A stretch of 64,000 nucleotides of DNA from an uncultured Clostridium sp. (GCA_946497695.1 CAMMLJ010000007.1:3043-67042); one strand, 5' to 3'; positions 8,606 to 63,696 are shown, counted from the stretch's first letter. A program made the numbers and translations. Notes: a model not told the origin generated them from the sequence alone.

Positions 8606-9127
8606 TTATTCTCCTTCTAGCACTGCTTTAATTTCTTCTCTTTCTCTACATTCTATTGGTATAAATATTGATGCTTTTTTATTTTGTGTTAATGCTGCAA
8701 TTATAATATCATTATCTCGTAACAATCTTTCACTTGCATATTTTACTATTATTCCCTTATTCTTTACTGCTTCTAGTACTACCTCTTTATCATCTCTAAG
8801 TTCTTTACTTGCATAATACAATACTTGACCATCTATTTTACAGCCTTCTAAAATTACTTCTTTGTCTGCTTTTAATTCTTCTGACGCGTAACATACAACC
8901 CAACCAACTTCCTTTACTGCTGTAAGTACAACGTCTTTATCATCTTTTAATCTATCACTTGCAAATTCTAGAACTTCACCATTTCTTTTAATAGCCTCAA
9001 GCATTACTTCTTTATTATCTCTTAGTTCGTCACTTGCAAATTCAATTAAGGTTGGTGTTTCCTCTATCGCTTTTAACACAAACTCTCTATCATTAGAATT
9101 TTCTATCACATCATCTTTGCTAATCAT
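8606..9127 (-). CDS. DUF4116 repeat protein
   Basis: Four or five repeats of about 30 aa of the type EFASDELRDNKEVMLEAIKRNGEVL / YASKELRDDKEVVLEAVKNKG. Confidence 0.7.
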   Translation of the reverse strand: MISKDDVIENSNDREFVLKAIEETPTLIEFASDELRDNKEVMLEAIKRNGEVLEFASDRLKDDKDVVLTAVKEVGWVVCYASEELKADKEVILEGCKIDGQVLYYASKELRDDKEVVLEAVKNKGIIVKYASERLLRDNDIIIAALTQNKKASIFIPIECREREEIKAVLEGE

Positions 9128-31249: not shown

Positions 31250-32506
31250 TTATTTTTCCTCATATGGAGTAAACATATCCTTTCTTTCTCCACAAACTGG
31301 ACATTTCCAATCTTCTGGCAAATCGTAAAACTCTGTGTTTGGCCCTATTCCTGCTGTTTCATTTCCAACTTTTGGATTATAAATATATTTGCAGTTTGAA
31401 CATTCATACATACTGCCCTCTTCTCCTCGTAAACTCGAAAAACTCCTATAGCCTAAAGCAATTACTGCAATTACCATAAACGCAAAAGATATTGCCTTTA
31501 TTATACCACTTTCAAATAATATTACTGCAAACATTCCAAATGTCGCACTAATTCCATATAAAATATAAACTGCTTGTTTTTGTGAAAATCCTTTTCTTAC
31601 TATTCTGTGATGTAAATGTCCTTTATCAGCCTGAAAAATAGCTTTTAAAGATTTTCCTTTGTGGATTCTTCTTAATATTGCACATACTGTATCAAAAATA
31701 GGTAATCCAAGAACTATAACTGGTAAAATAATTACTACTGCTGTATATGTTTTAGCTACACCTAAAATTGAAACTACTGATAATGTAAAACCTAGAAAAT
31801 TTGATCCAGTATCTCCTATGAATGTCTTTGCTGGATTAAAGTTAAATGGTAAAAATCCACATAAAGCTCCAGCTAAAGCTGTTATCATTATAATTGCAAT
31901 TAATGGTGAATTATTTAAAGAAAATATTATTAATAATGATATGCATGAAATCATTGTTATTCCAGATGATAACCCATCTAATCCATCCATTAAATTAATT
32001 GCATTAGTAATTACTATTATCCAAATAACTGTTAAAATCATAGAAACAGCTTCATTTAGTACTGCTGATTCAAAGAATGGGATTACTTCTATAATTCTTA
32101 TACCAGAAACTACAACTGCAATGGCAGCTAAAAGTTGACCTGAAAGTTTTGCTAAAGGTTTTATAGTTTTTACATCATCTATAAAACAAGTGATTCCTAA
32201 TATTAGCACACCTACAAAAAAGCCTAATATTTTTTTGCCATATTCTTCTATTCCAAATAAATTAAGTCTTGATGAATCCTCTATTGATAGTGTTATTACT
32301 AAATATATAAAAGAAACTACAAAACCTGCAATAACAGCAACCCCACCCAGTTTTGGAATCGGTTTATGATGCATTCTTCTATTATCTTTTGGTACATCAA
32401 CTGCACCTACTTTTTTGGCTAATTTTATAGAATATGGTGTCATCATAAAAGCTGTTATAAAGGCTAGTAGAAAGGCTATTGCTATATCACCCCACATATT
32501 TAACAC
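31250..32506 (-). CDS. Glycosyltransferase family 4 (WecA/TagO/MraY-like polyprenyl-phosphate HexNAc-1-P transferase) fused in frame to a C-terminal rubredoxin domain
   Basis: NAINLMDGLDGL and FIGDTGSNFLGF (GT4/MraY-family motifs) with about 10 TM helices. After the last TM comes ..LRGEEGS-MYECSNCKYIYNPKVGNETAGIGPNTEFYDLPEDWKCPVCGERKDMF (rubredoxin CxxC...CPxC). Confidence 0.8.
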   Translation of the reverse strand: MLNMWGDIAIAFLLAFITAFMMTPYSIKLAKKVGAVDVPKDNRRMHHKPIPKLGGVAVIAGFVVSFIYLVITLSIEDSSRLNLFGIEEYGKKILGFFVGVLILGITCFIDDVKTIKPLAKLSGQLLAAIAVVVSGIRIIEVIPFFESAVLNEAVSMILTVIWIIVITNAINLMDGLDGLSSGITMISCISLLIIFSLNNSPLIAIIMITALAGALCGFLPFNFNPAKTFIGDTGSNFLGFTLSVVSILGVAKTYTAVVIILPVIVLGLPIFDTVCAILRRIHKGKSLKAIFQADKGHLHHRIVRKGFSQKQAVYILYGISATFGMFAVILFESGIIKAISFAFMVIAVIALGYRSFSSLRGEEGSMYECSNCKYIYNPKVGNETAGIGPNTEFYDLPEDWKCPVCGERKDMFTPYEEK

Positions 32507-33086: not shown

Positions 33087-34340
33087 ATGAAAAAATTATG
33101 TATTATTTTATTTTTAATATTGATCGGAATAGCTTTGCTTGTAGGCTTATTTGTATTTTCATATAAAAGTGTAAACATCTCACAAAATGTAATACTAGGA
33201 GATGAGATTATTCTACCTGATAGAATTGTCTATAAAAATTCTAATAATCAATATTTTGAATTTTTACAAGATTCTGAACACTATGATGAAATTATAGAAT
33301 TAGTTGGTGGAACTTTAAATAATTTTAGTGAAAACGGTGAAATTGTATCTCAAGACATCATAGACACAATTCACGATAATGAATCATTTTTAGAATTTGA
33401 TTACGAAACTGCAAGCAAAAATTATATTATACCATTTGATGATACTTACAAAAATTCTATGATAAAACTTGCTACCACTGGTGGAAAAGTTTGTTCTACT
33501 AACTTAAAAAATATTAATAGATTAAATAATGAGCTTGATAAACTTAGTTCTAGCTGTAAACCTTATTCTTTAAAATATACAGAATTAGTATCCAAAAATC
33601 CATTTTCTTTAGAATATAAATATTCACAGCAATTTAAAGAAATAAACTATAAAATATATCAAGTAAAAATAACTGATTTAAAAACTTATGAAAGATATGA
33701 AGCTATGTGTAATCTAAGCTTTGAAGAACCTATTACAGAAGATACCTTTACAGATAATGACCTTATCCTAACTGTAACTATGGTTCCTAAAATCACTGTA
33801 AAAGTAAGCATTGGTAATATTCGTTATACATATGAGAACCTTCCTAATTCATATGGTTCCCCATATACCACACATTTATTAGTCGTAAGTAAAATTGTAA
33901 ACACCGATTGTGTTTATAACACTGATTTATCAACTGTTGATACACAAGCAAATTTAGATCAATTAGAAACAAGTTATGACGAAAAAATAGATAATTTAGA
34001 TGAAAACTTATTTGTAAAAGATTTTGATCAATTCTATAATGACTATACAAATTCAGCCTCTACACTTACAGAAGAACAAGCACAAACTGTTGTTACAACA
34101 GCTTGTGATGAAGCTTCACGTATTGCTGGTAAATATAATGAAAGTTCACAGACTTGTGAACTAAAATCAGTACATCCTAATAATTTCTTCACAAGGAAGA
34201 CTAATGAATCTGATAATGTTGCATCATATGAAGTAACAGCTTATTGTTTTAGAAGAACTGATGAAATTGGAAATGGTGTTGAAATTTATATAGATAATAA
34301 ATTAGGAAAAATTATAGGAGGTCGAGCTTTTGGTGATTAA
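33087..34340 (+). CDS. Hypothetical membrane-anchored/secreted protein
   Basis: ATG 33087 with AGGTGA upstream. N-terminal hydrophobic segment KLCIILFLILIGIALLVGLFVF. No family recognised. Confidence 0.5.
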   Translation: MKKLCIILFLILIGIALLVGLFVFSYKSVNISQNVILGDEIILPDRIVYKNSNNQYFEFLQDSEHYDEIIELVGGTLNNFSENGEIVSQDIIDTIHDNESFLEFDYETASKNYIIPFDDTYKNSMIKLATTGGKVCSTNLKNINRLNNELDKLSSSCKPYSLKYTELVSKNPFSLEYKYSQQFKEINYKIYQVKITDLKTYERYEAMCNLSFEEPITEDTFTDNDLILTVTMVPKITVKVSIGNIRYTYENLPNSYGSPYTTHLLVVSKIVNTDCVYNTDLSTVDTQANLDQLETSYDEKIDNLDENLFVKDFDQFYNDYTNSASTLTEEQAQTVVTTACDEASRIAGKYNESSQTCELKSVHPNNFFTRKTNESDNVASYEVTAYCFRRTDEIGNGVEIYIDNKLGKIIGGRAFGD

Positions 34341-35703
34341 AAATTTTATAAAAAAACATATTAAAGGAATGATATATATATTATCATGCTTAATTTTAGG
34401 AATACTATTTTACTATTATATTGCTACTTCAGTTCTTTCATCTTTCATAATTTTAGGGATGGGACTATTTAGTATAGAATCAATTGTTGCAACACTGTTA
34501 TATCCTTTTTCTTTGTTAATATTATTTTTTGCAGCAAGTTACATTTTATATAAATATTTAATGTACATAATTACATTGTTTACTAATAAAAAATTGCTAA
34601 AACCAATACTTTTACTCCTTGTACTTGTTATATTAATAACTATATGTGCCATTTTTAATTTTGTTTTATCCTCATCACTAAAACATCTATTTTTAATGGT
34701 AGTATACATATTAGGAACTATTTTTATTCCATTAATCCTATTAGCAATAATACTATTAAACAAAAATTCTTCTAAAAAGAATAAAATAAAAAAATCTATT
34801 TTAATTGTTATTGTTGCTTTAATAATCTATGTAATAAATGTTCCAACATTACTAGTAAGTAGTACATATATAACAACTTATATATCAAATCATCTAGACC
34901 AAAGTACACAAGTTCCAAATTTAGAATATTTAAATAATTACGAACAACGAATGGCAACAAAAGGATTTTTATATAAATCTGATGTAGAATATATTTTAAA
35001 TATAGCTGAACGCAGAAGTGAAAAAGTTATTGTTACTTATAAATTTGATGACGAAACTATAACAATTTCAAATAAGGATGAAAATTTTAAAGATACAATT
35101 ACAACTAACTTAAAATGGGATTACTATAAATTTAATTATACTTATACAAATAACATTGTTACAGTAAATATTGAAAAATATGCTACTACACAAGAAAATG
35201 AAGAAAAAAATAGTGATATTATTTTAGCAGGAAATATGAGAAACGACTTAATACAAAACGTAGAATCAGAAAATGTAGAGCTTACTGCTACAAATTTTGT
35301 AATAGAAAATAATTTTGTACTAACACCTGGATATAGACCTGATATTAGTAACTTACGACTTTTATTAGTATATGATAAAAATTCTAATAACTTTATCCCT
35401 GTGGTAGATAATGAGTCTTGTGTAAATATGATAGCATCATATGAAGTTACTTCAACTAGTCTAAATATTACTCTAACTAACGATACAAATTTAAATGTTT
35501 TAGACTATACATTAAGAATAAATAGATATAATGATGATTTAACTATACCTGAAGATAAGAATTATAATTATTATTATCATTATGAACCTGTTGTTACAAC
35601 TTCTACAAACAACACTGGTAATACTGTATTAACATTTGAATTTGATAACATCTTATCGTTAGAAAAATTAAATAACATAGAAATAATATTTAGTAATAAT
35701 TAA
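34330..35703 (+). CDS. Hypothetical polytopic membrane protein with a C-terminal soluble domain
   Basis: TTG start 8 nt after AGGAGG, overlapping the upstream stop. About five N-terminal TM helices. No family recognised. Confidence 0.5.
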   Translation: MVIKNFIKKHIKGMIYILSCLILGILFYYYIATSVLSSFIILGMGLFSIESIVATLLYPFSLLILFFAASYILYKYLMYIITLFTNKKLLKPILLLLVLVILITICAIFNFVLSSSLKHLFLMVVYILGTIFIPLILLAIILLNKNSSKKNKIKKSILIVIVALIIYVINVPTLLVSSTYITTYISNHLDQSTQVPNLEYLNNYEQRMATKGFLYKSDVEYILNIAERRSEKVIVTYKFDDETITISNKDENFKDTITTNLKWDYYKFNYTYTNNIVTVNIEKYATTQENEEKNSDIILAGNMRNDLIQNVESENVELTATNFVIENNFVLTPGYRPDISNLRLLLVYDKNSNNFIPVVDNESCVNMIASYEVTSTSLNITLTNDTNLNVLDYTLRINRYNDDLTIPEDKNYNYYYHYEPVVTTSTNNTGNTVLTFEFDNILSLEKLNNIEIIFSNN

Positions 35704-51554: not shown

Positions 51555-53201
51555 TTATATTGAATTTAAAGATAAACTCTTATAAGAATTGCATCGTTCT
51601 CTAAATAAAGCTGTATAATACGCTTTTCTTATATTATTTGGTGCAGAATCTAAAATAGTGTCCAAATCAGTTATATTATTTCCTAAAGCATTGTCCATTT
51701 CATTACTTCCATTTGATGTAGTAATATCAGTTGATGTTACAATACATGCATAATCAGCGGTTGCATTACCATGAGGGAAATAATTCTTTGTTGTACTATC
51801 ATTTGAAACAAAACTTTGTGCATCAAAATCTGTATTTCTATATCCAATAATCTCTCCAGTAGGCGAAAAATCTATATGTCTAACATCATGATACTGATTA
51901 GCACTTCCTTGATCTAATATATATATTAATTTTGGATCTACAAATTCTCTATTTTTATTATTTGTTACTATGCTATAGCCCATGTAATATCCATTTCCTA
52001 TATTTTGACCTTGCATAAATGAAATCAAACAAGTATTGCTTAATATCAGACTCCATTCATTTTCTGTTAATGTTGGCATTTTTGCAGGATGAGTAGAATT
52101 TTCATTAAATTTCGCAATTGTTGTTCTTAAATTAGTTGTTATGGAATTTCTGATAACTTGTAATTTATGTGCATTAAAGTTATCAAGCATTGTTCCATCT
52201 GTTGCACTAAAATTTATTAAATTTTGTTCTCCTACATTACCTGTAATTCCTAAATCTTCTTGGTTTACATCAACAATATCTTTTAATTGAATATCTTGTA
52301 AAATATTTTTTATTTGATTTGTAAAAGAATACGCATCTTGTAAGTATTTCTGTGCACTTGTATCTCTTTGGTAAGAGGTACCTAATTGATTTAACATATT
52401 TTCATCAACTTCATTAGTAGTTCCATCAACATTATATTTATACCATCTACTGCCATTCCAATATGCTTTTTCTCTTCTTCCATTTGCATTAGTAAAATAT
52501 GTATAATTTACTTTTTGTGGAGAAATTTGATTAGCTTCAAAACTTGTACGGTTTACTTCAGCTAATGCTTCATTATCTATAGAAATCCCATCATATGTAG
52601 TTCCTGATTCATTAGTTTTTGAAGTATCTATTAAAAAACCTGAATATGTTTGATAATTACCTGAACTATCTTTATAAAACACAGTTATATAATTATCTAA
52701 TGTATAATTTATTACTATATCTCTGTTTCCTTTTTTATATCTAGCTGAATAATATATATATGGTTTTAATCCTGTAGTTGAATCTGCAGAATTTAAATTA
52801 ACAGTAATATCACCTTCTGAATCTCTTCCTGTTACAACATTATTATATTTTGTATATATATAATAACCATCATACAATGTATATACCAATGCTGGTATAT
52901 AACTTTGTAATTCTTCTTCTGAATATCCACTTTGTCCAAAATTTGTAGCTAAAGAGTTATAAAATGTTGTTACAGAAGCCTCAACATCTCTTATTTTTTC
53001 TTGGGCTATATTTTGTGTTGTACTATTTAATTCGTTAATTTGAAATGCTTTTATTGCATCATAAGTTGCATTATTTAAAATAGTATCATAATTTCCCTGT
53101 AAATTAACGTAATTTATTTGCACTTGAATATATAAAGACATTACTAATACTATCGGTATAACAATAATAGAAAATATTACTATCCAGCTTTGTAATTTCA
53201 T
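51555..53201 (-). CDS. Hypothetical 548-aa N-terminally anchored extracytoplasmic protein (last gene of the Tad-like locus)
   Basis: Single N-terminal TM helix (WIVIFSIIVIPIVLVMSLY), then a T/N/S/Y-rich body. No family recognised. Confidence 0.5.
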   Translation of the reverse strand: MKLQSWIVIFSIIVIPIVLVMSLYIQVQINYVNLQGNYDTILNNATYDAIKAFQINELNSTTQNIAQEKIRDVEASVTTFYNSLATNFGQSGYSEEELQSYIPALVYTLYDGYYIYTKYNNVVTGRDSEGDITVNLNSADSTTGLKPYIYYSARYKKGNRDIVINYTLDNYITVFYKDSSGNYQTYSGFLIDTSKTNESGTTYDGISIDNEALAEVNRTSFEANQISPQKVNYTYFTNANGRREKAYWNGSRWYKYNVDGTTNEVDENMLNQLGTSYQRDTSAQKYLQDAYSFTNQIKNILQDIQLKDIVDVNQEDLGITGNVGEQNLINFSATDGTMLDNFNAHKLQVIRNSITTNLRTTIAKFNENSTHPAKMPTLTENEWSLILSNTCLISFMQGQNIGNGYYMGYSIVTNNKNREFVDPKLIYILDQGSANQYHDVRHIDFSPTGEIIGYRNTDFDAQSFVSNDSTTKNYFPHGNATADYACIVTSTDITTSNGSNEMDNALGNNITDLDTILDSAPNNIRKAYYTALFRERCNSYKSLSLNSI

Positions 53202-53241
53202 CTTAATTCCTTTCTTTACTTTTGTAACTCTTTAATCTCTT

Positions 53242-53283
53242 TTATTATACAAGAAAAATTGTTAAATTTTTCTTGTATAATAA
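53242..53283. repeat. Perfect 19-bp inverted repeat with a 4-nt loop, intergenic within the Tad-like locus
   Basis: TTATTATACAAGAAAAATT-gtta-AATTTTTCTTGTATAATAA. Confidence 0.9.
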
Positions 53284-53328
53284 AAGAAAAAGGTGTTTTT
53301 TACAAGACACCCCTTATTTCTTTTTATT

Positions 53329-53862
53329 TTAATTTCTTCCATTAACAGTAACAATTCCTCCATTTGAAGTCCCTATTGTTGAAGAGTCATTTCCTGTTAC
53401 TCTATAGAAGAAGTTTCTTAATAATTGAGAAATTGTTGTGTTTGTATTTTTTACACTAACAGATACAAAATCTCCTTCTTTTAAGTATTTAGTATTATTA
53501 TTACTTGCATCATTTAAGTCTTCCATAATTTGTGTAGTATATTCTGTATAATAAACATTCTCACCTATTTTTTCATAGGCTGTTTGTGCTGTTTTCTTTC
53601 CTGGGTTTTCATCTAATACTTTTACTTCAATTTCTACATCATATGTATTTCCTGTAGCATTTATCTCTTGCACAAACCTATTATATTCTGCTAATGTTAT
53701 TCTTCCTGTAGAACGAATATTGTCTACAAATGTAGTTGTACTATTTTGAACAGATAATTGTGAAACATCATCACTACGATCAGCAACTGACATTAAGGGA
53801 AAAATAAACATTAATACAGCTGCTAATACTATAGCTAAAATTGTTACTACTGTATCTCCCAT
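53329..53862 (-). CDS. Hypothetical N-terminally anchored protein (minor pilin-like/accessory, Tad-like locus)
   Basis: MGDTVVTILAIVLAAVLMFIFPLMSV hydrophobic N-terminus, AGGAGG RBS, position in the locus. Confidence 0.45.
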   Translation of the reverse strand: MGDTVVTILAIVLAAVLMFIFPLMSVADRSDDVSQLSVQNSTTTFVDNIRSTGRITLAEYNRFVQEINATGNTYDVEIEVKVLDENPGKKTAQTAYEKIGENVYYTEYTTQIMEDLNDASNNNTKYLKEGDFVSVSVKNTNTTISQLLRNFFYRVTGNDSSTIGTSNGGIVTVNGRN

Positions 53863-53891: not shown

Positions 53892-54479
53892 TTATTTTAA
53901 CGTATATGTTATTACTCTTTTATATTGTTTATTTATATCTGGAACTAATTCATTTGTATCTTGATCTTCTTCATAATCTTCTATTGTACCTAGTTTTTCT
54001 TCGAATTGTCTATCTTTGTATGATGGTTGCAATAAAAATTCAACCACATCATCTACATGTTGCTTTATCTTTGTAGTATTTCCTCTCCATTCTTCATATT
54101 TAGTTACACCATTTTCTTCCCAATGTTCTGTGTCTAAATCCAAATCATTTTTCTTAACATGGATTCCATTTTGCATTTGACCACTTTCGTATACATTTAA
54201 TGGTGAACCGTCTGAATTATAGAATTGAACTGCATAATCTTCTTGAGCATATCTATATAATGTTGGAATTATATCTGATAATGTAACTGTTCGAGAAAAT
54301 GCTTTTGTTTCACCTTCTGCAAGTTCTACATATTGGTAAGTTTCTTGTCTATCTTGGTTCTTTACTAAACTATCAGCAGTTGTTTTTGCTTGTGTTAGAG
54401 TAACCATGGTAATTGATAGTGCAATTATAAATAATAGCATAAATCCTGCCATTTTTAATGCTTCTACTGCATTCTCCAT
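53892..54479 (-). CDS. Pilin-like protein, MENA-family paralog 5 (divergent)
   Basis: MENAVEALKMAGFMLLFIIALSITMVTL: shared N-terminal motif plus a hydrophobic helix. 195 aa. Confidence 0.5.
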   Translation of the reverse strand: MENAVEALKMAGFMLLFIIALSITMVTLTQAKTTADSLVKNQDRQETYQYVELAEGETKAFSRTVTLSDIIPTLYRYAQEDYAVQFYNSDGSPLNVYESGQMQNGIHVKKNDLDLDTEHWEENGVTKYEEWRGNTTKIKQHVDDVVEFLLQPSYKDRQFEEKLGTIEDYEEDQDTNELVPDINKQYKRVITYTLK

Positions 54480-54501
54480 GATTACTCCTCCTTAATTTAA
54501 A

Positions 54502-54906
54502 TTATTTTGCTTCAACTGTCATTGCTGTTACATAACCTTTATATTGTCCGTCTTGTGTTTGATATCCTGTAATTTTTACTTCGTATTGACTTGTTGGTTG
54601 ATAACTATTTTTCTCTGTTGCTAATGATGCATTATCACTTTTTCCATTAACCGAGATTTGTCCTAATGCTGGCATTCTTTGATTATTATTTCTTACTGCA
54701 TCTATTAATGCTTTTGCTTGTGTTCCATTTATTGTTCCCTCATAATTTTGGAATGTAGAATTATGTGCCTCTACTTGTTGGTTTGATAAGTCATCCATAT
54801 TTGTTGCACTTCTTGCTTGGTTAAAAATATACACTCCTAATGCTATAATCAAAATTGCAAGTAATATTGCTCCTGCTATAATTAATGCTTTTGATGCATT
54901 CTCCAT
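54502..54906 (-). CDS. Pilin-like protein, MENA-family paralog 4 (candidate major subunit, tandem duplicate)
   Basis: MENASKALIIAGAILLAILIIALGVYIF... 134 aa. The first 116 coding nt plus the RBS are identical to the upstream paralog. Confidence 0.55.
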   Translation of the reverse strand: MENASKALIIAGAILLAILIIALGVYIFNQARSATNMDDLSNQQVEAHNSTFQNYEGTINGTQAKALIDAVRNNNQRMPALGQISVNGKSDNASLATEKNSYQPTSQYEVKITGYQTQDGQYKGYVTAMTVEAK

Positions 54907-54923
54907 AATTTATTCCTCCTCTG

Positions 54924-55346
54924 TTAATTTTTCTTTGTTACCTTCATTTTTGTAACATAGCCTTTATATTGTCCATCTTGTGTTTGATATTCTGTAATAG
55001 ATACTTCGTATTGACTTGTTGGTTGATAAGTATTTTTTTCTGTTGCTAGTTTTGCATTATCTTTTAAACCTGTACCACTAACACCATCAACTGTTATTTG
55101 TCCTAATGTTGGCATTCTTTGATTATTATTTCTTATTGCATCTATTAATGCTTTTGCCTGTGTTCCATTTATTGTTCCCTCATAATTTTGGAATGTTGCA
55201 TTATGTGCTTCTACTTGTTGATTTGATAAATCATCCATATTTGTTGCACTTCTTGCTTGGTTAAAAATATACACTCCTAATGCTATAATCAAAATTGCAA
55301 GTAATATTGCTCCTGCTATAATTAATGCTTTTGATGCATTCTCCAT
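54924..55346 (-). CDS. Pilin-like protein, MENA-family paralog 3 (candidate major subunit, tandem duplicate)
   Basis: MENASKALIIAGAILLAILIIALGVYIF... 140 aa. Strong GGAGGAATAAATT-ATG RBS. Confidence 0.55.
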   Translation of the reverse strand: MENASKALIIAGAILLAILIIALGVYIFNQARSATNMDDLSNQQVEAHNATFQNYEGTINGTQAKALIDAIRNNNQRMPTLGQITVDGVSGTGLKDNAKLATEKNTYQPTSQYEVSITEYQTQDGQYKGYVTKMKVTKKN

Positions 55347-55403
55347 AATTTATTCCTCCTTTGTTCTTCAAAAATATATATTAAAGAACCTTATTAACTA
55401 AAT

Positions 55404-55835
55404 TTAAGATATTTGTTCAATATATAAATAACTTATCCTTTTGTTGTTTTTATGATATTCAACTTTTGTACATTTAAATTGTATATTACTATAATTATTT
55501 ACTAAATTAGGAATCTCTCCCGCATTTAATGTTTCCATACTGTATGTCTTTTGTGTATCTGTCATATATACATCTACTCTTACAGAATATAAATCATCTG
55601 GAACATACTTTCCCGACTCATCTTTAGCAATATCATACTTTTCATTATTATCTATTGCCAAATTAATAATTGTTGCAAGTTCTGTTCCAAAAAATTCTTG
55701 ATTTATATATTGTGAAAACTGATTATTAAATTTCTGAACTTGATTTATATCATTTTTATACATTGAATATGCATATGTAATTGATATAACTATACAAATT
55801 GCTATAACACAAATTATTATTATTGTCCTTTTCAT
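55404..55835 (-). CDS. Hypothetical N-terminally anchored small protein (Tad-like locus)
   Basis: ATG 55835. MKRTIIIICVIAICIVISITYAY TM helix. No MENA motif. Confidence 0.45.
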   Translation of the reverse strand: MKRTIIIICVIAICIVISITYAYSMYKNDINQVQKFNNQFSQYINQEFFGTELATIINLAIDNNEKYDIAKDESGKYVPDDLYSVRVDVYMTDTQKTYSMETLNAGEIPNLVNNYSNIQFKCTKVEYHKNNKRISYLYIEQIS

Positions 55836-55913
55836 ATGCACCCTTTCTAATATTATACCATTATTCTACAAGTTTTGTAAATATTTTTAAAACAATAAAA
55901 CTGTTAATTTTTG

Positions 55914-56348
55914 TCAAACTTTTGTAAAGATAACTGTACTTATTACACCTTCTGTTTCTGATACGTTACATTTAAACATGGTACCTGCTTTTGCATGTAT
56001 CTGTAATAGATTAGTAATTTCATTATTATCTAAATTTTGCAAGTTTGAATTTTCTCCTAAAATTGATACTCTTATATACCCTTTATCACCAGGATTTAAA
56101 TTTAATGATTTATTATTATCTTTTGCTTTATTTATAACGGAAACAACATCATAAATTGTATTTTCATCAGATCCTTCATATCTTGTATATTCATTATTAG
56201 CTTCTGCTAGTTGTCTTTCATTTATCCTATCATACATATCTTCTGCATAACTACCATAAGAAGTAAAAAGATATACAAATAAAGAGGCAACCATAATTGC
56301 TATTAGCATTCCACCAGCTATTATAAGTGCTTTTGACGCATTATCCAT
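55914..56348 (-). CDS. Pilin-like protein, MENA-family paralog 2
   Basis: MDNASKALIIAGGMLIAIMVASLFVYLF... followed by ..QLAEANNEYTRYEG, which parallels ..QVEAHNSTFQNYEG of paralogs 3 and 4. Confidence 0.5.
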   Translation of the reverse strand: MDNASKALIIAGGMLIAIMVASLFVYLFTSYGSYAEDMYDRINERQLAEANNEYTRYEGSDENTIYDVVSVINKAKDNNKSLNLNPGDKGYIRVSILGENSNLQNLDNNEITNLLQIHAKAGTMFKCNVSETEGVISTVIFTKV

Positions 56349-56377
56349 AATTTAGTTGCCCTCCTTTTTTACAAAAT

Positions 56378-57025
56378 CTATTTAGTTTCTTCAAAAGACA
56401 TACTTGATACCCTACCATTATCAAAAAATGTTGTCTCTGCATGCTTAAATTTCATTCTCTTAAATTGTACATATTGGTAATATATTTTTGCAGCTTCTTG
56501 TAAGTCAGTCCAATTTACAGATGTATTAACATTTAATTCTGTACACAACTTTTGAAAAGACTCTGAACTATTACTACTTGCTTTTGCTAAATATTCCCAC
56601 TGCGAATCAGAAATTTTCCCATTATATTTAGTTGAATTTGTTGTTTGATTCATTACACTCTCAATTCTTGAATTTATTGTAGATAAATTATATGTTCCTT
56701 TAACAAATAAATTGTCTGTAGAACCTGATAACTCTTGAATTTTTACTGTTAAATTCATAGTTCCATAATTACTATATTTTACATCATCACTAATATTATA
56801 ATCGCTCATCTTATTTACAAGACCTAATAATTCACTACCATATAAAACTTTTTCATAAGATAAATAACTTTTATTAAAATCTTCTACTTTTTGAACTTCG
56901 ACCTCTTCTTGTTGCATTCTTTGACTATCGCCCCAATGAGTAAAGACATAATATACTAATACTGCAAGCATAACTGCAATTAAAACTCCACCAGCAATAG
57001 TTAATGCTTTTGATGCGTTCTCCAT
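56378..57025 (-). CDS. Pilin-like protein, MENA-family paralog 1
   Basis: MENASKALTIAGGVLIAVMLAVLVYYVF... 215 aa. ..KVEDFNKSYLSYEK parallels the post-helix motif of the other paralogs. Confidence 0.5.
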   Translation of the reverse strand: MENASKALTIAGGVLIAVMLAVLVYYVFTHWGDSQRMQQEEVEVQKVEDFNKSYLSYEKVLYGSELLGLVNKMSDYNISDDVKYSNYGTMNLTVKIQELSGSTDNLFVKGTYNLSTINSRIESVMNQTTNSTKYNGKISDSQWEYLAKASSNSSESFQKLCTELNVNTSVNWTDLQEAAKIYYQYVQFKRMKFKHAETTFFDNGRVSSMSFEETK

Positions 57026-57043: not shown

Positions 57044-59116
57044 TTACATGTTTGACATTGTAGTAAATGAACTTGACATACTTGTTAAACCTATAAATAC
57101 TAATGGTGCAATTAAATATCCAACAAACATACATACCATAGGAGCGAAACCAATTCCTTTTCCAATTAAGCCTTTGTTAGAAATTAATCTGTCATTAGAT
57201 TCTTTTCTCTTAGCTTGGTAGTAGTCTCTTTCTGTATCTAATTCATCAAATGCTTCTACAATAGGTATCTTTTCTACTGCAGCTTGAAGACTTTCTACAA
57301 TTCTTATCATATCTTGATATGATATATCTTCTTTTAATTGTTCTAGAGCTTCCCATGCTCCAGCTTCATAGTTATTAACACACTTACTAATTGGCTCTTT
57401 GAATATATTAGCATATCTTTCTAGCCATTCTAAAATCATTTCAACATTTACTCTTTCAATTCTCATAAGCATTAATATAATTGTTTGGAACTGCATTACT
57501 TCGTTTTCCATTTCCATTTGTCTCATTTTCTTTTGGAATATTAAAAGTAATATTGGAAAAGCATATCCAATTAATCCAAATACCAATCCTATCAATATTT
57601 CAAACCATTTTAAATATTCTCCATTAATTGTTTGCAGCTTTTCATATATTCTTTCTGAATCAGTAGCTAATGTATCTTCTGTAGCCCCTTCGTAATATTC
57701 TGATCTCTGCATTGCTCTTAATATATCATCTTGTGTCGCTGTTAAATTTCCTCTAAACATGTCCAAGAAAATATTATCTATCCTAGTCGTCTCAATAGCT
57801 TCCTGTTCATCTGCCTCACCCATTGCCCCCATTAGATCATAATCAGTAGTCGGTTCGGTATATATATAATTAACTTGCAATTTATGTAAATATATCATTA
57901 TTATTATTGATGCTATAAAAACTACTATAAACAAAACTATTCTATTTACATACACCCAAGAGAGTTTAAGTGGTGATGCTGCATCTTTTAATAATTCTTT
58001 TTGTTTTCTATAATCTGTTGATCCTTCTTTTGGAATAAATAGGTCAACAAATTTCTTAATTGGTTTCTTTTTATATAATTTTTCCTGCCATGGGTTCTCT
58101 GTATTTTGTGTTTTTGTATTAACTGAACCATTATCTTTTAATTTTCTAGTAAGTGTATAACAAATGAATGTTAATACAATTACTAATATTTGTACAATCA
58201 TCCCTTGTTTTCCCATGTAGAAACTCTTTGTAAATGAGAATTGGCTTACAGACCAATTCTTTATCATTTCTAAGAATAGCATCGGTACAATAGAAATTAC
58301 AGATAAACTTTGGAAAACATAATCTAGTTTATCTCTTTTTAAAATTTCTAGTTGCATTTCCTGTGTTATATTATTTAAGTTCTTTAAATATAAAGAAGCT
58401 CCATCTTTCTTTCTGTCACCATATTCTTTTGTTAAGTAAGAAATTCCTGCAAATTCCTTTAAATAACTATTTGGTGCCACATCATAATACTTTTCCAATT
58501 CCATTTCTGGATCATCAGAAATTAATATTTCATAAATTTTTTCTGCTTGTCTTGAAACTTCTAATTCATTATCCTGTGCTGTTTGATATATTGCTTCCTC
58601 TACCATGTTAAATTCATGGTATGCGTGTCTTATTTCTCCAAAGAAGTTAATTTGTTGTTTTAACAAATTATTATCAATTTTATCTACCATTCCATCTATC
58701 ATACTATCCATTATGAAGATTTCAAAAATTATTAAAATTCCTAGTAACAAAAAATTAGTGTAAGTAAGCCATATAATAACAATAGTAAAAGGTATAACAA
58801 TTACTAAACCTTTTGTTAATATTTGTGAAGCTTGTTTTCTTGTCAAATATTCATCATCTATATTTAATATTTCCAATCTTCTACGTAATTTTAATAAATA
58901 ACGTTTTATAAGTGGAATTTTTCTATATTTTAAATATAGTCTTTGAAATATAATATCTGCAGAAAATGTTGACTTCTGTGTCCCTCTTCTTAATTGCTGT
59001 ATTTGTTTGTATTGGGAACTTTGCATTTTTTTCCTAATTTGCAAATAAGCGATAACAATTATTAGAAAAACAACACCTATTGCTATAAGAAAATATAATA
59101 ATACTTGATTTGACAT
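57044..59116 (-). CDS. Polytopic platform protein, apparent TadB-TadC (two T2SS-F-like modules) fusion
   Basis: 690 aa. It has two cytoplasmic helical modules, each followed by TM helices. The second (NEVMQFQTIILMLMRIERVNVEMILEWLERYANIF...GAWEALEQLKEDISYQDMIRIVESLQAAVEKIPIVEAFDELDTERDYYQAKRKE) follows the TadC/GspF-domain pattern. It sits directly after the ATPase gene. Confidence 0.6.
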   Translation of the reverse strand: MSNQVLLYFLIAIGVVFLIIVIAYLQIRKKMQSSQYKQIQQLRRGTQKSTFSADIIFQRLYLKYRKIPLIKRYLLKLRRRLEILNIDDEYLTRKQASQILTKGLVIVIPFTIVIIWLTYTNFLLLGILIIFEIFIMDSMIDGMVDKIDNNLLKQQINFFGEIRHAYHEFNMVEEAIYQTAQDNELEVSRQAEKIYEILISDDPEMELEKYYDVAPNSYLKEFAGISYLTKEYGDRKKDGASLYLKNLNNITQEMQLEILKRDKLDYVFQSLSVISIVPMLFLEMIKNWSVSQFSFTKSFYMGKQGMIVQILVIVLTFICYTLTRKLKDNGSVNTKTQNTENPWQEKLYKKKPIKKFVDLFIPKEGSTDYRKQKELLKDAASPLKLSWVYVNRIVLFIVVFIASIIIMIYLHKLQVNYIYTEPTTDYDLMGAMGEADEQEAIETTRIDNIFLDMFRGNLTATQDDILRAMQRSEYYEGATEDTLATDSERIYEKLQTINGEYLKWFEILIGLVFGLIGYAFPILLLIFQKKMRQMEMENEVMQFQTIILMLMRIERVNVEMILEWLERYANIFKEPISKCVNNYEAGAWEALEQLKEDISYQDMIRIVESLQAAVEKIPIVEAFDELDTERDYYQAKRKESNDRLISNKGLIGKGIGFAPMVCMFVGYLIAPLVFIGLTSMSSSFTTMSNM

Positions 59117-59141: not shown

Positions 59142-61094
59142 TTACTCTTTTGTCTTTCTTGGTCTTCCTGCTCTTCTAACAGTTTTAGCTTCTTCTGCAT
59201 TTTTTGAAGTTACTTTTGAAGTGCCCCAATGATCTTCTATAAATTTATCAAATTCTGCTAAATCTTTATCATCCATATTTAGTCTCATTTCTTGTATGTT
59301 ATGATCTGTAATTTTATTTGTTATAACATATTCTCCGTCATGATATTCCATAATGTTTCTATATGTATATAATTGTTTATTTGTTATCTTTGTAAAATAA
59401 TGTGTTGCATTATCAAAGAATTTTTCAAACTTACCTTCTAATGTTTTTTCATTTCTAAAATCGAATGTATATTCATTTTTTTCTTCTACAGGTATACATT
59501 CTGTAACTCTTTCTATATATCTTCTACCTCTAAAGTCTTTTACTAAGTGAATATCAAAATTTAATACTTGTACAACTTGTTCTTCTGCTGTTTTTTCATT
59601 TGTGAACACACCAGTTCTGAGCATTGAGTTTCTTAATGCTGTAACCAAATCTGGGAATGTTTTAGCATGGTGTGTAAATAATGTAAACTTAGAAGCAACC
59701 TGAGCTGCTTGAATCATCCAAGAAGCAACAGGGTCAGTTGCAACCTCACCTATGATATTAACAGAACCATCAGTCTTTTTCTGAACGTCCAATCCCTCTT
59801 GTCCAGAAATTGTTTCTGTTTCTCTAAATGTTAAAATATTTCTTGTAGGATAAATTTTTCTTAAGTGAAGCTCAAATGCAGTTTCCTGAACCCTTATGTT
59901 CATTGTTTCATAAATATTTTCTATCATACCCATAAGCATTGTTGTTTTACCACAACCTTGCTCACCAGTAAGTGAAACTATACGTGCACCTTTTACTAAA
60001 TATTTTAATAATGAAATTGCATCTTCTTTTCCTGGTATTGTAATTAATTGTTCAAGTGTAGCACGTTTTACATCGAATTTTCTTACGAAGAAAGCCCATG
60101 TTTCAGAAAAACTTGGTCTAACAACAACAACACGAGAACCATCTTTCATTTCATTAATCTTATAACCATTTGTATCTGACAATTGTCCTGGGTTATTGTA
60201 TTTATAAATATTTTGACAAACTCTTTTTAGTTCTGCTTCTGAACCAAAAGAAAGAAAAGCTAAACGTATAGATTTACCTTGGAAGAATATCCAAATACTA
60301 TCACAAGCACGTGGTACTTTATGTTCCATAACTTCGTTTAAATAGTCACCATCTGTTTGTGCAACTTGGCTTAAAAAACTTTCTGGAAGTCCAGATACAC
60401 CACCAGATACACCATCTATATTCATATCTCTTATTTCATCTATAGAACTATATCCTTTATAATGTTGATAAATTCTTTGTACTACTACATTTAATTTATC
60501 TGAGAATGTAAGTACAAAACCTTCTCTTTCATATATATCATTTATTTCTTCCTCTGTTATTACATAACAAGGTTTAGCATCTCCTGCTACATATTTTAAT
60601 GTATCTAATTCATATTTCTTTATTAATTCTGTTAATGCTTCATATCCAAATTCTTTTTTATACATATATATAATAATATCGAACTTGTCTTGTGGTGTAA
60701 GTAATGAAGGAATATCAAAAGGAATTGACTTTGAAATATTTGTTTCATCTACTCCATACTCTTTTGAAAGTATGTCATAAATTAATTCTTTTACATATTT
60801 CTTATCATTAACATCTCCATATGTACAGCCTTTTAAAGCCTTTTTCAATTCATATTTTTTGTTTTTTCTTCTTTTTAATTCTTCTTCTGTTAGCCCTAAA
60901 TCATATAAATTTATTTTTGTTATTTCATCAAGTCTTTTCTTGATATATTCAGTCATCTTTTGTAAAGTATATGTTTGATCATCAACATCTACTAGTTTTT
61001 CTACTTCTGCATTCTTTTTCTTCTGTATATTTCTATATACTAAATACACAAATACTAAGGCAACAGCTAGTATTAATACAATATTAAGAATCAT
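59142..61094 (-). CDS. CpaF/TadA-type secretion ATPase with an N-terminal TM helix and a C-terminal AT-hook-like tail
   Basis: Walker A LTGEQGCGKTTML. DGSVNIIGEVATDPVASWMIQAAQVASKFTLFTHHAKT matches the CpaF pattern D.I.IGE.R..E......QA...G....T.HA. N-terminus MILNIVLILAVALVFVYLVY. C-terminus ..KTVRRAGRPRKTKE. Confidence 0.85.
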   Translation of the reverse strand: MILNIVLILAVALVFVYLVYRNIQKKKNAEVEKLVDVDDQTYTLQKMTEYIKKRLDEITKINLYDLGLTEEELKRRKNKKYELKKALKGCTYGDVNDKKYVKELIYDILSKEYGVDETNISKSIPFDIPSLLTPQDKFDIIIYMYKKEFGYEALTELIKKYELDTLKYVAGDAKPCYVITEEEINDIYEREGFVLTFSDKLNVVVQRIYQHYKGYSSIDEIRDMNIDGVSGGVSGLPESFLSQVAQTDGDYLNEVMEHKVPRACDSIWIFFQGKSIRLAFLSFGSEAELKRVCQNIYKYNNPGQLSDTNGYKINEMKDGSRVVVVRPSFSETWAFFVRKFDVKRATLEQLITIPGKEDAISLLKYLVKGARIVSLTGEQGCGKTTMLMGMIENIYETMNIRVQETAFELHLRKIYPTRNILTFRETETISGQEGLDVQKKTDGSVNIIGEVATDPVASWMIQAAQVASKFTLFTHHAKTFPDLVTALRNSMLRTGVFTNEKTAEEQVVQVLNFDIHLVKDFRGRRYIERVTECIPVEEKNEYTFDFRNEKTLEGKFEKFFDNATHYFTKITNKQLYTYRNIMEYHDGEYVITNKITDHNIQEMRLNMDDKDLAEFDKFIEDHWGTSKVTSKNAEEAKTVRRAGRPRKTKE

Positions 61095-61115: not shown

Positions 61116-61949
61116 TTATCTCATCATTTGCATTTCATCTATTTTATATAAAATTCCTTGGATTAACTCTTTTACATCAAGTAAAAATTTTGCATTTCTA
61201 TCTTTATCTGATATTGTCTGCATTTTTAAGAAATAATCCACAACTAATCCTTCATCACATGCATCAGAAAATAAAGTATTGTATACTATTGGGAATAATG
61301 AATCCTTAGTTTTTATTGTTCTTATAATATTTTTTTGAGTATATTTAGAAAATTTGTCATATCTTCCAATATATCCAACAATATTATTCATTTTTGAAGT
61401 ATAGCCTTCTTTTCTAGATTTAGCATAATTCTCTATAGAATGACGTTTTTGTGTCATTCCATAAACAAGTACATCAGAAATCGTTAAAATATCTTGCGCT
61501 AGTTCATTTATTCCTTTTTTTAAATCCACAAGTACTATATCATACACCATACTAGCTTTTTTGATTAGAGATACATAAAAAGCATCAATTGTAGGTGTTT
61601 CTACTCCATCATATCCTGATAATACTTCTAGTCTATCTTTAAAAATTATCCCTGTATAATCTTTTATTAATTCTGGAGACAATTTATTGCTTCCTTCTAT
61701 TTTCATTAAACCTGTAACTCCAGATTCAATTCCTACCGATTTTTTAGTTAAATTTAATAAAGATAATAAATTAGTTTTTTGTGCTTTTGGTTTTAAATAT
61801 GCAGCCTCAAATTCTTTATTATTTTCATATGTGGAAATTAACAACACTTTTTTATTGTGTTGTATAGCCATTTGTGTAGCCACAGCAATCGCTGTTGAAG
61901 TTTGTCCTGTTTCTTTATCATCCTCTGTCCAAAAAGATACTATAGCCAT
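61116..61949 (-). CDS. ParA/MinD-fold protein with a degenerate P-loop (TadZ/CpaE-like)
   Basis: IVSFWTEDDKETGQTSTAIAVATQMA..KKVLLIST aligns with IAV.S.KGGVGKTT.A.NLA......KVLLID, with the P-loop Lys replaced (GQTS). YDIVLVDLKKG resembles Walker B. Confidence 0.5.
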   Translation of the reverse strand: MAIVSFWTEDDKETGQTSTAIAVATQMAIQHNKKVLLISTYENNKEFEAAYLKPKAQKTNLLSLLNLTKKSVGIESGVTGLMKIEGSNKLSPELIKDYTGIIFKDRLEVLSGYDGVETPTIDAFYVSLIKKASMVYDIVLVDLKKGINELAQDILTISDVLVYGMTQKRHSIENYAKSRKEGYTSKMNNIVGYIGRYDKFSKYTQKNIIRTIKTKDSLFPIVYNTLFSDACDEGLVVDYFLKMQTISDKDRNAKFLLDVKELIQGILYKIDEMQMMR

Positions 61950-61968: not shown

Positions 61969-62652
61969 TTAAATTTCTTTCATTATTTTCCTTACCATAA
62001 GGCCTTGAAGTTTAGGATCTATCTTGGCAACTACAAATTCCATTCCATCTTTATACATACTTGTCAAATTCTCAAATCTAACTTTTGCTACTTTTTGGTT
62101 ATTTATAATCGCTGTTTTATCTCCCATTTCCAAAGGAAAATATATTCTGTCATCTTCCCACATAACTTTTGAGCCTAATGATAAATAATTTAAATAGTCA
62201 TCATCTTCTTTTGTAACTTCTTTTGCAAATAATACTTTTGTCATTTTTATTGGATTTGGAAAGCCATTTAAAATTTCTAGTCCTCTTCTAACATCATATG
62301 TATCAAAAGATGTTACAAAAAAGTTTTGTACTGCTTTATCTATTTTAAAATTCATTGCACTTTCAGCATTATCTATATCAACCAAAACATAATCATATTC
62401 TAATGTTTCTATACTTCTATTCGTATAATCTGCTATTCCTTCTATATTTTTAAATCCAACTGCAATATCTATTTCTTCAAATTCTGTTATATAAGACAAA
62501 GTAGGATTTAGTGCAGGCACAACATATTTTGCTTTTTGAGTAATTGTTGTATCTGCAATTAATACTTTTTGGCCTAATACAGTTAGAATTTTAGCAATAT
62601 ATATAATTAAATCCGTTTTATCAAAAGCTCCTATAAATCCTACTTCTTTCAT
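61969..62652 (-). CDS. Second ParA/MinD-fold-like protein, P-loop more degenerate
   Basis: VGFIGAFDKTDLIIYIAKILTVLGQKVLIADTT and YDYVLVDIDN keep the fold pattern but not KGGxGK[ST]. Confidence 0.4.
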   Translation of the reverse strand: MKEVGFIGAFDKTDLIIYIAKILTVLGQKVLIADTTITQKAKYVVPALNPTLSYITEFEEIDIAVGFKNIEGIADYTNRSIETLEYDYVLVDIDNAESAMNFKIDKAVQNFFVTSFDTYDVRRGLEILNGFPNPIKMTKVLFAKEVTKEDDDYLNYLSLGSKVMWEDDRIYFPLEMGDKTAIINNQKVAKVRFENLTSMYKDGMEFVVAKIDPKLQGLMVRKIMKEI

Positions 62653-62670: not shown

Positions 62671-63696
62671 TTAATTTACTGTACTTGTATCTGTTGTAGT
62701 TGCTGTGTTTCCAGCGCTTGTAGTTGCACTTGCTGCAGCTGCATCTTCAAGCGATTGCAAATATTGTTGTCTTAATTCTTTTTGTTGTGTAATATGTTCT
62801 TCTACAGAAGTTTCTAAATTAGATTGTCTATCTTCTGCATCAACACTATTTATTTGTCCATTAATAAAGTTTTCTCTTAAAGTACGATTATATCTATTTG
62901 CTATAGCTGCTTTTGCTTCTTCTACTATATTTGGATTCGAATCCATTAAGTTAAGTGCTTCTGCATTTACTGGATATGTTGGTGTTGCTGCTACTTGCAT
63001 TCCTGGATCTGTGTATCTTGTTACATACATTTCAGCTGTTGATAACTGATATGTTTCTATGATTGCACTTGACATAGAAATTGTTTCATCTTCTGATAAA
63101 TTTATAGTAATTACTCCTTCTGCTGGCGCTCCTGCAATCTCTGGAATTGTTACTTGTTTCTTAGCCACAACTATGTAATCTTGTCCATTTCCAAAACGTA
63201 TACGAACATCTACAAAATCGCCATCTACTAAATCTGTAGGTAATGACAACATATTATACTCTTGTCTTCTCAAGTCATTTGTAACTTGTTCTGAACTTGT
63301 TGTTAACATATCTTTAGTTAAAATTGTTCCTGCTTTTAAATCTATTTTTGCAACTATATCTGATCTTGGTTGAGTTAAACCTTCGTCAGAATAGAAATCA
63401 GATGAAGTTGCTACATTCTCTGGCACTACAGCACCATCTGCTTCTTCTTGTTGTATATTAGGTATTCTAGATGTGTCTCCTTCTATCGCTGAAATCTGCA
63501 CTCCTGAACCTGAAGATATATCTTCAGATACAACATATACAACTCTTTTAGCTGCTTCTAGCGCATCTTGTTCCTTTTTTAAATTAATTAATTGCATAAA
63601 TAGTAAAGCAATTACTATTGCTGCTATAATTAACATTACTAACATTCCTAATAAAAATGATACTCTTTTTTGTCTTTGCATTGGATTTGAAGCCAT
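62671..63696 (-). CDS. cpaB: CpaB/RcpC-like Flp-pilus assembly protein
   Basis: N-terminal TM helix. VYVVSEDISSGSGV... and IDLKAGTILTKDMLT.....LSLPTDLVDGDFVDVRIRF...DYIVVAKKQVTI follow the SAF plus RcpC beta-clip pattern (..pGd.VDv...). Low-complexity A/T/S tail. AAGGAGG RBS. Confidence 0.72.
   Translation of the reverse strand: MASNPMQRQKRVSFLLGMLVMLIIAAIVIALLFMQLINLKKEQDALEAAKRVVYVVSEDISSGSGVQISAIEGDTSRIPNIQQEEADGAVVPENVATSSDFYSDEGLTQPRSDIVAKIDLKAGTILTKDMLTTSSEQVTNDLRRQEYNMLSLPTDLVDGDFVDVRIRFGNGQDYIVVAKKQVTIPEIAGAPAEGVITINLSEDETISMSSAIIETYQLSTAEMYVTRYTDPGMQVAATPTYPVNAEALNLMDSNPNIVEEAKAAIANRYNRTLRENFINGQINSVDAEDRQSNLETSVEEHITQQKELRQQYLQSLEDAAAASATTSAGNTATTTDTSTVN

Follow-up and report, generated by a model that had tools for sequence, protein, structure and literature searches.

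The window analysed here is a stretch of 64,000 nucleotides from an uncultured Clostridium sp. (GCA_946497695.1, CAMMLJ010000007.1:3043-67042), and its minus strand encodes a series of small pilin-like proteins directly behind a Tad-like assembly machine. Proteins are numbered 927-938 after the corresponding members of a published pilus gene cluster from the uncultured gut order TANB77 (Kim et al. 2024, Nat Commun 15:10726; PMC11680825). A first-pass annotation had described five paralogs that start M-[ED]-N-A-[SV]-[KE]-A-L and continue into a hydrophobic helix. A listing of open reading frames (ORFs) recovers all five on the minus strand at the same coordinates, within 53892-57025. The first encodes 215 amino acids (aa) and starts MENASKAL (56378-57025; N-terminus MENASKALTIAGGVLIAVMLAVLVYYVF; class 932). 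It is followed by a 144-aa protein that starts MDNASKAL (55914-56348; MDNASKALIIAGGMLIAIMVASLFVYLF; class 933). Both are probable minor subunits. Next come a 140-aa protein (54924-55346; class 935) and a 134-aa protein (54502-54906), which share the MENASKAL start and the N-terminus MENASKALIIAGAILLAILIIALGVYIF and are 90% identical overall; they are copies 1 and 2 of a putative major subunit. The last is a 195-aa protein with the variant start MENAVEALKM (53892-54479; MENAVEALKMAGFMLLFIIALSITMVTL; class 936). All five N-termini lead straight into a hydrophobic helix of 21-23 residues. Three of the bodies contain a post-helix motif, QVEAHNSTFQNYEG, QLAEANNEYTRYEG and KVEDFNKSYLSYEK, and the three can be aligned with one another, as the first reading had proposed.

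The N-termini are genuine. Each ORF is the longest possible, with its start at the first start codon past an in-frame stop, so that no upstream extension of the N-terminus is possible. A GGAGG or AAGGAG ribosome-binding site lies 6-10 nucleotides 5′ of each ATG, and the intergenic gaps measure 17-29 nucleotides. For comparison, 79 species-level genomes were fetched with a profile of the subunits and 10 kb on each side of the operon was examined. Of the 307 homologous ORFs in these related loci, 265 have M-E/D-N-A as their exact start. Mis-called starts are ruled out by the longest-possible ORFs, the strong ribosome-binding sites and this common start among homologs. The residues shared by the paralogs are encoded by differing synonymous codons (AAC/AAT, GCA/GCG, TTA/CTT), so conservation of the N-terminus acts at the protein level and reflects selection on the protein. 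The same synonymous-site differences rule out gene conversion as the source of the common N-terminus.

The leaderless N-terminus is a conserved trait, to an extent far above what chance would give. Across the 79 species, column entropy at positions 1-8 is near 0 in four paralog classes, and the bodies diverge to 20-30% identity. E2-N3-A4 is invariant, and acidic rather than basic. A7 is 93-100% and L8 89-100% conserved in all five classes. Class 936 follows the pattern M-E-N-A-[VAT]-[DE]-A-L-K: position 6 is acidic and position 9 is Lys, as against K6 and I/L9 in the remaining classes. G12 and G24 are 95-97% conserved within the putative major class (935). An exhaustive profile search returned about 5,800 clusters at 50% identity (E<=0.001), and in all 150 of the matches listed the alignment begins at residue 1 of the match. 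A 90%-identity collection contains 6,977 homologs of the 134-aa protein, none of the 120 matches listed carrying a Pfam domain or source name, and the exact sequence of this protein was found in 60 blocks of metagenome assemblies. Searches of the subunit family against Pfam, NCBIfam and PDB sequences gave no match above threshold, neither to N_methyl nor to any other pilin model. Far below the curated Pfam thresholds, DUF515 appeared in 10 of 26 members and SoxE_N in 8 of 26.

The putative major class occurs in one to four tandem copies across related genomes. The tandem pair in the window (54502-55346, minus strand) diverges in its C-terminal half, and up to four copies are found elsewhere, for example at L018:8193-10399 (L numbers denote the loci that we compared). 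Tandem duplication of this gene suggests copy-number or antigenic variation.

The five genes belong to a 13-gene minus-strand operon that starts at 63696 and encodes, in order, a SAF protein, two ParA-like proteins, an ATPase, a platform protein, the pilin-like set, and proteins of 177 and 548 aa. Upstream of it a HAD hydrolase gene ends, so that the operon starts with the 341-aa gene. This first gene (927; 62671-63696) encodes a bitopic, CpaB/RcpC-like protein with no Pfam match of its own; it is homologous (E 9e-28) to a Thermobacillus plasmid protein whose Pfam SAF domain scores above threshold at 30.4 bits. The next two genes encode a 227-aa ParA/TadZ-like protein (928; 61969-62652), with no Pfam match, and a 277-aa ParA/CpaE-like P-loop protein (929; 61116-61949), with a weak AAA_31 match (E 0.0018). 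Each is kept in 66 of the 79 loci. Structural homology of 927 to CpaB, 928 to TadZ and 929 to CpaE has been reported, and 930 was annotated as TadA/CpaF with one transmembrane (TM) helix (PMC11680825). Kim et al. arrived by Foldseek at the machine assignment that we make here (PMC11680825). In the window, 930 is a 650-aa CpaF/TadA-like secretion ATPase (59142-61094) with an N-terminal TM helix and an intact Walker A motif, GEQGCGKT. It matches Pfam T2SSE at 25.6 bits, barely at threshold, and TIGR03819 (TadA) at E 5.6e-8 versus E 3e-4 for ComGA. Its closest solved relative is CpaF (PDB 8rkd/9e24; E 2e-9, residues 271-540).

The 690-aa putative platform (931; 57044-59116) has eight TM helices and lies immediately before the first subunit gene. 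According to the literature it is a fused TadC+TadB-like protein, its two halves being homologous to TadC and TadB by Foldseek (Kim et al., PMC11680825). Our AlphaFold2 model (predicted local distance difference test, pLDDT, 79) contains two similar units, each running from a long TM helix through four short helices to a second long TM helix (residues 122-292 and 504-689), an architecture compatible with a TadC-TadB fusion. UniRef names several homologs GspF domain-containing. The subunits are encoded beside a CpaF-family ATPase and a polytopic platform, together with the SAF and ParA-like proteins typical of Tad/Flp systems. Between 65 and 75 of the 79 related loci retain the operon genes together, with the ParA-like proteins and the platform kept in 66-70; spoIVB adjoins in 54, and the subunit genes are strictly linked to the CpaF-type ATPase and the platform.

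The ATPase gene itself varies among relatives. In about 32 of 60 related genomes it is split inside Walker A, with GGT TG[CT] CGG AAA [AG]AC AAC where the window reads GGT TGT GGT AAA ACA ACA. Split sites lie, for example, at L008:5150-5165, L034:~5150, L076:~5205, L018:~3460 and L055:~3820, and the intact site of the window at ~59950-59970. A one-base skip (TGC-C-GGA-AAA-ACA) restores GEQGC-GKTTMLM. Synonymous differences on the flanks and an A-run that is not constant argue against assembly error. CGG is used 0.37 times per 1,000 codons in the related loci, and about half of all CGGs stand at this site. By its sequence, the split resembles a programmed +1 frameshift that is conserved and takes place at a hungry CGG codon.

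This operon is a member of the cluster that Kim et al. described as a conserved set of 10-14 pilus genes in ~95% of TANB77 species (PMC11680825). Gene order is the same, and protein sizes correspond from 927 to 938: 341/227/277/650/690/215/144/143/140+134/195/177/548 aa in the window, against 358/231/280/640/693/165/170/143/146/237/178/621 aa in the paper (PMC11680825). The predicted TM pattern also agrees, including the ATPase TM helix and a signal peptide on the small protein 934, as does the type of host, uncultured low-GC gut Clostridia. All 79 genome matches are metagenome-assembled genomes from such hosts with the same synteny. Membership follows from this gene-for-gene match in order, sizes, TM pattern and host type, together with the synteny, rather than from sequence comparison with the proteins of the paper. 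Kim et al. annotated 931 as an 8-TM protein and listed six small proteins, five with one TM helix (‘1 TMH’) and one with a signal peptide, as well as a 621-aa protein with partial similarity to TadE/PilV (PMC11680825). Their structure and sequence searches of 932-937 gave nothing, and ‘pilin-like’ was assigned from context, size and topology (PMC11680825). The first-pass annotation knew of no described pilin class with this N-terminus; the proteins themselves had been published as ‘pilin-like proteins 932-936’, but the paper is silent on the trait. The words prepilin, peptidase, leader and N-terminal are absent from its text, and the conserved N-terminus goes unmentioned (PMC11680825). Our literature search found no relevant account of leaderless or peptidase-independent pilins in the collection of papers that it covered. 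Thus, the subunit set of a Tad-like machine and its ‘pilin-like’ label were already known, and the leaderless conserved N-terminus, the lack of a nearby peptidase gene and the plasmid homologs described below are new.

The reading that we prefer, held at somewhat less than even confidence, is that the five ORFs code for the leaderless set of subunits in the Tad-like, type IVc-related pilus machine whose genes lie immediately upstream. The 140- and 134-aa pair would be a duplicated major subunit, and the 215-, 144- and 195-aa proteins putative minor subunits. The subunits would insert N-in/C-out through the 21-23-residue helix, with seven residues (MENASKA) staying cytoplasmic. The membrane-anchored CpaF-like ATPase and the 8-TM platform would then pull each subunit out and stack the filament by helix-helix packing. 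The invariant N-terminal octapeptide may serve as the assembly determinant, a counterpart of the mature N-termini (FTLIE, xTAIEY) that A24 cleavage exposes elsewhere, and E2 and K6 are candidates for charge neutralisation between subunits. We propose that, with a mature-like N-terminus already written into the gene, the system would need no dedicated prepilin peptidase, or minimal trimming at most. The absence of cleavage would be consistent with a conservation that begins and peaks at Met1, with the non-basic E2-N3-A4, and with the 177-aa protein, which is leaderless too. If E2 is counted as +1, four paralogs have K at residue +5, and the 195-aa class has D/E there. Laying the Flp sequence xTAIEYGLIA on ENA[SV][KE]ALIIA would likewise put the variant-class D/E at +5, an alignment that is our own reading rather than a statistical one.

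A sixth paralog (934), overlooked when the set was counted as five, lies inside the same interval. Its ORF spans 55404-55841 on the minus strand, with a probable ATG at 55835, and encodes 143 aa, a length that gene callers also give it in other assemblies. It is kept in 74 of the 79 related loci. The body is pilin-like and carries the same body motif (QVQKFNNQFSQY). The N-terminus, MKRTIIIICVIAICIV (MKRTIIIICV), is an ordinary Sec-type, signal-peptide-like or anchor sequence, not MENASKAL, and a signal peptide has been predicted for protein 934 (PMC11680825). The best promoter-like site of the region, a sigma-70-like TTTACA-18-TATAAT with an extended -10, is found just 5′ of this gene (55881-55852).

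With one paralog bearing a classical signal peptide, the whole set might consist of ordinary Sec-dependent secreted or anchored proteins, the common N-terminus being a paralogous signal peptide or anchor cut by signal peptidase I. Small-x-small motifs follow some of the helices (TQA/K in the 195-aa and SYA/E in the 144-aa protein), and the C. botulinum plasmid cluster has a lepB gene close by. However, the 21-23-residue hydrophobic stretch exceeds a typical signal-peptide core, and in 932, 933, 935 and 936 DeepTMHMM predicts a TM helix rather than a signal peptide (PMC11680825). Residues 1-12 are also nearly invariant over thousands of proteins, unlike those of Sec signal peptides, and strict linkage of the genes to the CpaF-type ATPase and platform speaks against a general secretory role. 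We regard this explanation as very improbable.

Homologs of the machine extend beyond TANB77. Full-length homologs of the ATPase (37-58% identity; 37-57% for genes annotated TadA) and of the platform (25-42% identity) occur on 35 large plasmids. The hosts include Thermobacillus composti, Paenibacillus spp., Cohnella, Sporosarcina, Cytobacillus, Alkalihalophilus pseudofirmus OF4 and Lysinibacillus sphaericus (pBsph), as well as Clostridium botulinum, C. argentinense, C. beijerinckii and Butyrivibrio proteoclasticus. Further homologs are found in Paenibacillus chromosomes. Five plasmid loci were read: pTHECO01 (L080), pBsph (L081), pBpOF4-01 (L084), pINGR16-02E1 (L085) and pCY186 (L086). Their common order is a SAF protein, two ParA-like proteins, ATPase, platform, small bitopic proteins, a homolog of the 177-aa protein and a homolog of the 548-aa protein, and BLAST connects every component, the subunit included, between the window and the plasmid operons. 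The first subunits of the five operons start MSTNASKALYFGASLLL, MESPVVKAIILAVTIF, MDSVTKAIIFGASLLM, MGENARKALYMAVGVFF and MGGSLSEGLRTVFAVVL, with 6-9 residues before the helix. The cluster has been stated to be exclusive to TANB77 (PMC11680825). As judged by sequence homology, the plasmid operons in Bacilli and other Clostridia contradict that claim.

The Thermobacillus, Lysinibacillus and Alkalihalophilus operons, three of the five read, have genes for an SLH protein and for a DUF5704 protein of 1,000-1,200 aa on their 3′ side, and unnamed proteins take this place in C. botulinum and Butyrivibrio. A GGDEF or diguanylate-cyclase protein comes next in three (Thermobacillus, Alkalihalophilus, C. 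botulinum). A literature search on DUF5704 found no papers. Some plasmid versions reside on replicons with conjugation-type genes. Instead of an external pilus, the subunits could form a short pseudopilus or wall-spanning piston, as in type II secretion, that exports or displays the large downstream proteins or aids plasmid transfer. Candidate cargo would be the 548-aa protein in the window and the SLH and DUF5704 proteins on plasmids. The replicons carry a type IV secretion system coupling protein, a relaxase-like protein, cell-wall hydrolases and SSB, and the Lysinibacillus genome paper suggested a role in conjugal transfer for the pilus ATPase (PMC4363355). Several distinct paralogs in fixed order would also resemble a pseudopilin set. 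Yet the TANB77 operon is chromosomal, single-copy, placed beside spoIVB, conserved in ~95% of species and free of conjugation genes nearby, and tandem amplification of one class, up to four copies, suits an abundant major subunit. A piston of this kind is, in our estimate, quite improbable.

We found no gene for an A24-type peptidase, whether inside the operon, elsewhere in the 64-kb window or up to 10 kb from the operon at the 79 related loci; nor is one annotated around the five plasmid operons in the regions fetched (7-12 kb each side of the match), which come from unrelated hosts. Besides the platform, the window contains six polytopic ORFs, none with a GxGD motif. The ORF at 27147-27803 is an M50 peptidase by Pfam, and that at 34330-35703 has no significant Pfam match. 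Those at 4032-4715, 6173-7339, 9120-11465 and 31250-32506 were rejected on the GxGD screen only, with no Pfam scan. Around the 79 related loci, 15 clusters of polytopic ORFs lie outside the operon, again with no GxGD. The sole recurrent one is a Cys-rich protein with three TM helices, rejected as a hidden peptidase for its lack of GxGD, its mere ~70 membrane residues and its absence from the window. This protein, of ~140-210 aa with a Cys/Asn-rich tail, is encoded directly 5′ of the CpaB-like gene in ~25 related genomes (for example L008:763-1236, L048:847-1284 and L076:877-1293) and belongs to no family recognised by inspection.

The subunits also lack a canonical signal for such a peptidase. 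The class III signal peptide of type IV pilins is a charged leader with Gly (or Ala) as its last residue, which an A24 peptidase cleaves. The first reading had noted no basic leader and no canonical G/F, G/A or KG/Q site, and this is what we find: the longest possible ORFs begin seven residues ahead of the helix, position 7 is Ala, there is no Gly at -1, and no pilin model matches. A prepilin peptidase and a cleavable class III signal have been treated as universal core features of type IV filaments (PMC6668835). In lacking both a class III leader and a nearby peptidase gene, the present system truly differs from every type IV filament system characterised so far.

Tad/Flp pili, as known from Caulobacter, Aggregatibacter, Bifidobacterium and others, are among the systems closest to this machine. 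Shared with them are the CpaF/TadA-type ATPase, the CpaB-like SAF protein, the TadZ/CpaE-like ParA proteins, the run of several pilin-like genes downstream and, according to the literature, a TadB/TadC-like platform. By contrast, Flp pilins are helical hairpins of 50-80 aa with a long leader and a G/xxxxEY site, whereas the proteins here are 134-215 aa long with a predicted head, no leader and no EY. Neither the locus nor its surroundings contain a TadV/CpaA peptidase gene. The ATPase is anchored by an N-terminal TM helix, the platform would be one 690-aa fusion, and each component scores below, or barely at, its Pfam threshold. The Com pseudopilus and type IVa pili (ComGC, PilA) resemble the present system in their monoderm host, in a predicted ~50-residue N-terminal hydrophobic helix with a small head, and in having major and minor subunits. 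Type IVa pilins carry helix-destabilising residues at G14 and P22, to which G12 and G24 would correspond here. Unlike ComGC and PilA, the subunits have no N_methyl or prepilin-type cleavage-methylation motif in Pfam or NCBIfam, and the ATPase is CpaF-like, not PilB/ComGA-like.

The predicted fold is pilin-like in outline. An AlphaFold2 model of the 134-aa protein, built from a 26-sequence alignment (pLDDT 82.8), shows a helix at residues 2-53 and then a head of three short strands and two helices; confidence falls to 53 at residues 31-40. The lollipop pilin fold that the first-pass annotation hoped to recover by Foldseek did not emerge, and the likeness rests on topology.

Several observations weigh against a leaderless pilus. 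Foldseek of the 134-aa model against the PDB gave no match at E<=0.001 and no pilin among the 50 best matches, and Kim et al. likewise obtained no pilin-like structure for 932-937 (PMC11680825). The platform had no Pfam T2SSF match in 31 members, and its comparison with GspF, TadB and TadC by PDB profile search and by Foldseek against the PDB was non-significant. So were hhalign comparisons with Rhizobium TadB and TadC and E. coli HofC, and a comparison of its N-half with its C-half. As our own tests were non-significant, the identity of the platform is taken from the published Foldseek result (PMC11680825). No filament has been observed, and TANB77 is uncultured (PMC11680825). Absence of the peptidase gene, which the first reading had called missing, holds for the neighbourhood of the locus and not for the whole genome: prepilin peptidase genes often lie at a distance from the pilus locus and serve more than one system, and TadV can be encoded elsewhere, so that absence near the locus does not show absence in the genome (PMC6668835).

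A further counterpoint lies in the sequence around position 7. This residue is always small, A or, in the Butyrivibrio relative, G, preceded by K/E/D and followed by L/I, and it seems to resemble a class III [KR]-[GA]/hydrophobic cleavage site of the archaeal type. Processing at A7 may therefore take place, and the earlier suggestion that the proteins enter a filament uncleaved is partly supported. Among plasmid relatives the distance from Met1 to K-A-[LI] varies by one residue and the site itself is kept, a poor fit with a role for a free N-terminal amine.

The proteins could accordingly be conventional class III substrates with a seven-residue, archaeal-type signal, MENASKA/L (MENAVEA/L in the variant), cut by a peptidase encoded elsewhere (A24, FlaK/PibD-like or EppA-like) to give a mature start at L8. 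The conservation of A7 and L8 in all five classes would be explained, as would plasmid relatives that keep [K/E]-[A/G]-[L/I] while the preceding residues vary (MSTNASKA/L, MDSVTKA/I, MGENARKA/L, MGGSLSEG/L). Both PibD and FlaK of archaea tolerate Ala at -1 and leaders only a few residues long, and Tad systems are thought to derive from archaeal pili. The likeness to archaeal class III substrates (PibD, FlaK, EppA) extends to the short pre-helix segment, the predicted head after the helix and the DUF515, SoxE_N and Arch_flagellin matches, the last in the 177-aa family and all far below curated thresholds. K6-A7/L8 fits four paralogs; the fifth class has E/D at -2, not K/R. The pre-helix segment (MEN...) is acidic or neutral, not basic as in archaea, and E2-N3-A4 is invariant, although leaders are usually the least conserved part of a prepilin. 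The hosts are bacterial, the neighbourhoods of 79 genomes and five plasmid operons offered no candidate peptidase, and the ComC/PilD enzymes of the unrelated plasmid hosts themselves recognise G/F-type sites. Cleavage would also leave LIIAGAILL, a mature N-terminus with no charged residue. Taken together, we consider such a short cleaved signal rather unlikely, though more probable than the other rivals.

Should the leaderless pilus reading hold, it would point to a peptidase-independent branch of the type IV filament superfamily. We offer this wider idea tentatively and as the weaker of our two proposals: Tad-derived machines of Firmicutes whose subunits carry a ready-made mature N-terminus of the MENASKAL type and undergo no leader cleavage. 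The branch would span TANB77 chromosomes and large plasmids of Paenibacillus, Lysinibacillus, Thermobacillus, Alkalihalophilus, Clostridium and Butyrivibrio.

The remaining genes of the operon follow the subunits on the minus strand. The 177-aa protein (937; 53329-53862; MGDTVVTILAIVLAAVLMFIFPL), leaderless and pseudopilin-like, has an invariant Pro22, and homologs occur in all plasmid operons compared. Its family has sub-threshold Pfam matches to DUF4320 in 7 of 19 members and to Arch_flagellin in 2 of 19. A terminator-like hairpin, GGTGTCTTGTAAAAAACACC followed by TTTTTCTTTT, lies 3′ of its gene (53282-53311, minus strand); the palindromic stem was reported by a scan on the plus strand, and the T-run follows on the minus strand. 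Between this hairpin and the start of the 548-aa gene stands a perfect AT-rich inverted repeat, TATACAAGAAAAATT-(TAAC)-AATTTTTCTTGTATA (53225-53262), which could be an operator or a second hairpin. The 548-aa bitopic protein (938; 51555-53201; MKLQSWIVIFSIIVIPIV) has no Pfam match and is kept in 65 loci, with spoIVB next to it. Its N-terminal 180 residues are homologous to plasmid proteins. It corresponds to the ‘pilin 938’ that was tested in mice and has partial structural homology to TadE/PilV (PMC11680825). At the left end of the window (408-3211, minus strand) a protein that starts with the cytosine-5 DNA methyltransferase-like motif FAGAGGLALG, plus several small unassigned ORFs, may mark a restriction-modification or mobile segment.

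The TANB77 ‘pilin-like’ proteins correlate with the response to anti-PD-1 therapy and enhance it in mice (PMC11680825). Their true mature N-terminus and their ability to form filaments thus matter for any use as adjuvants or biomarkers. TANB77 is uncultured, but plasmid homologs in the cultivable Lysinibacillus sphaericus C3-41, Paenibacillus polymyxa M1 and A. pseudofirmus OF4 make the question directly testable. Current models, and the Pfam and NCBIfam profiles, miss every subunit described here. If true, a family of about 5,800 clusters with neither a peptidase nor a class III signal would change how type IV filaments are defined and detected, and a peptidase-independent branch would overturn the rule that a prepilin peptidase is indispensable to all type IV filaments.

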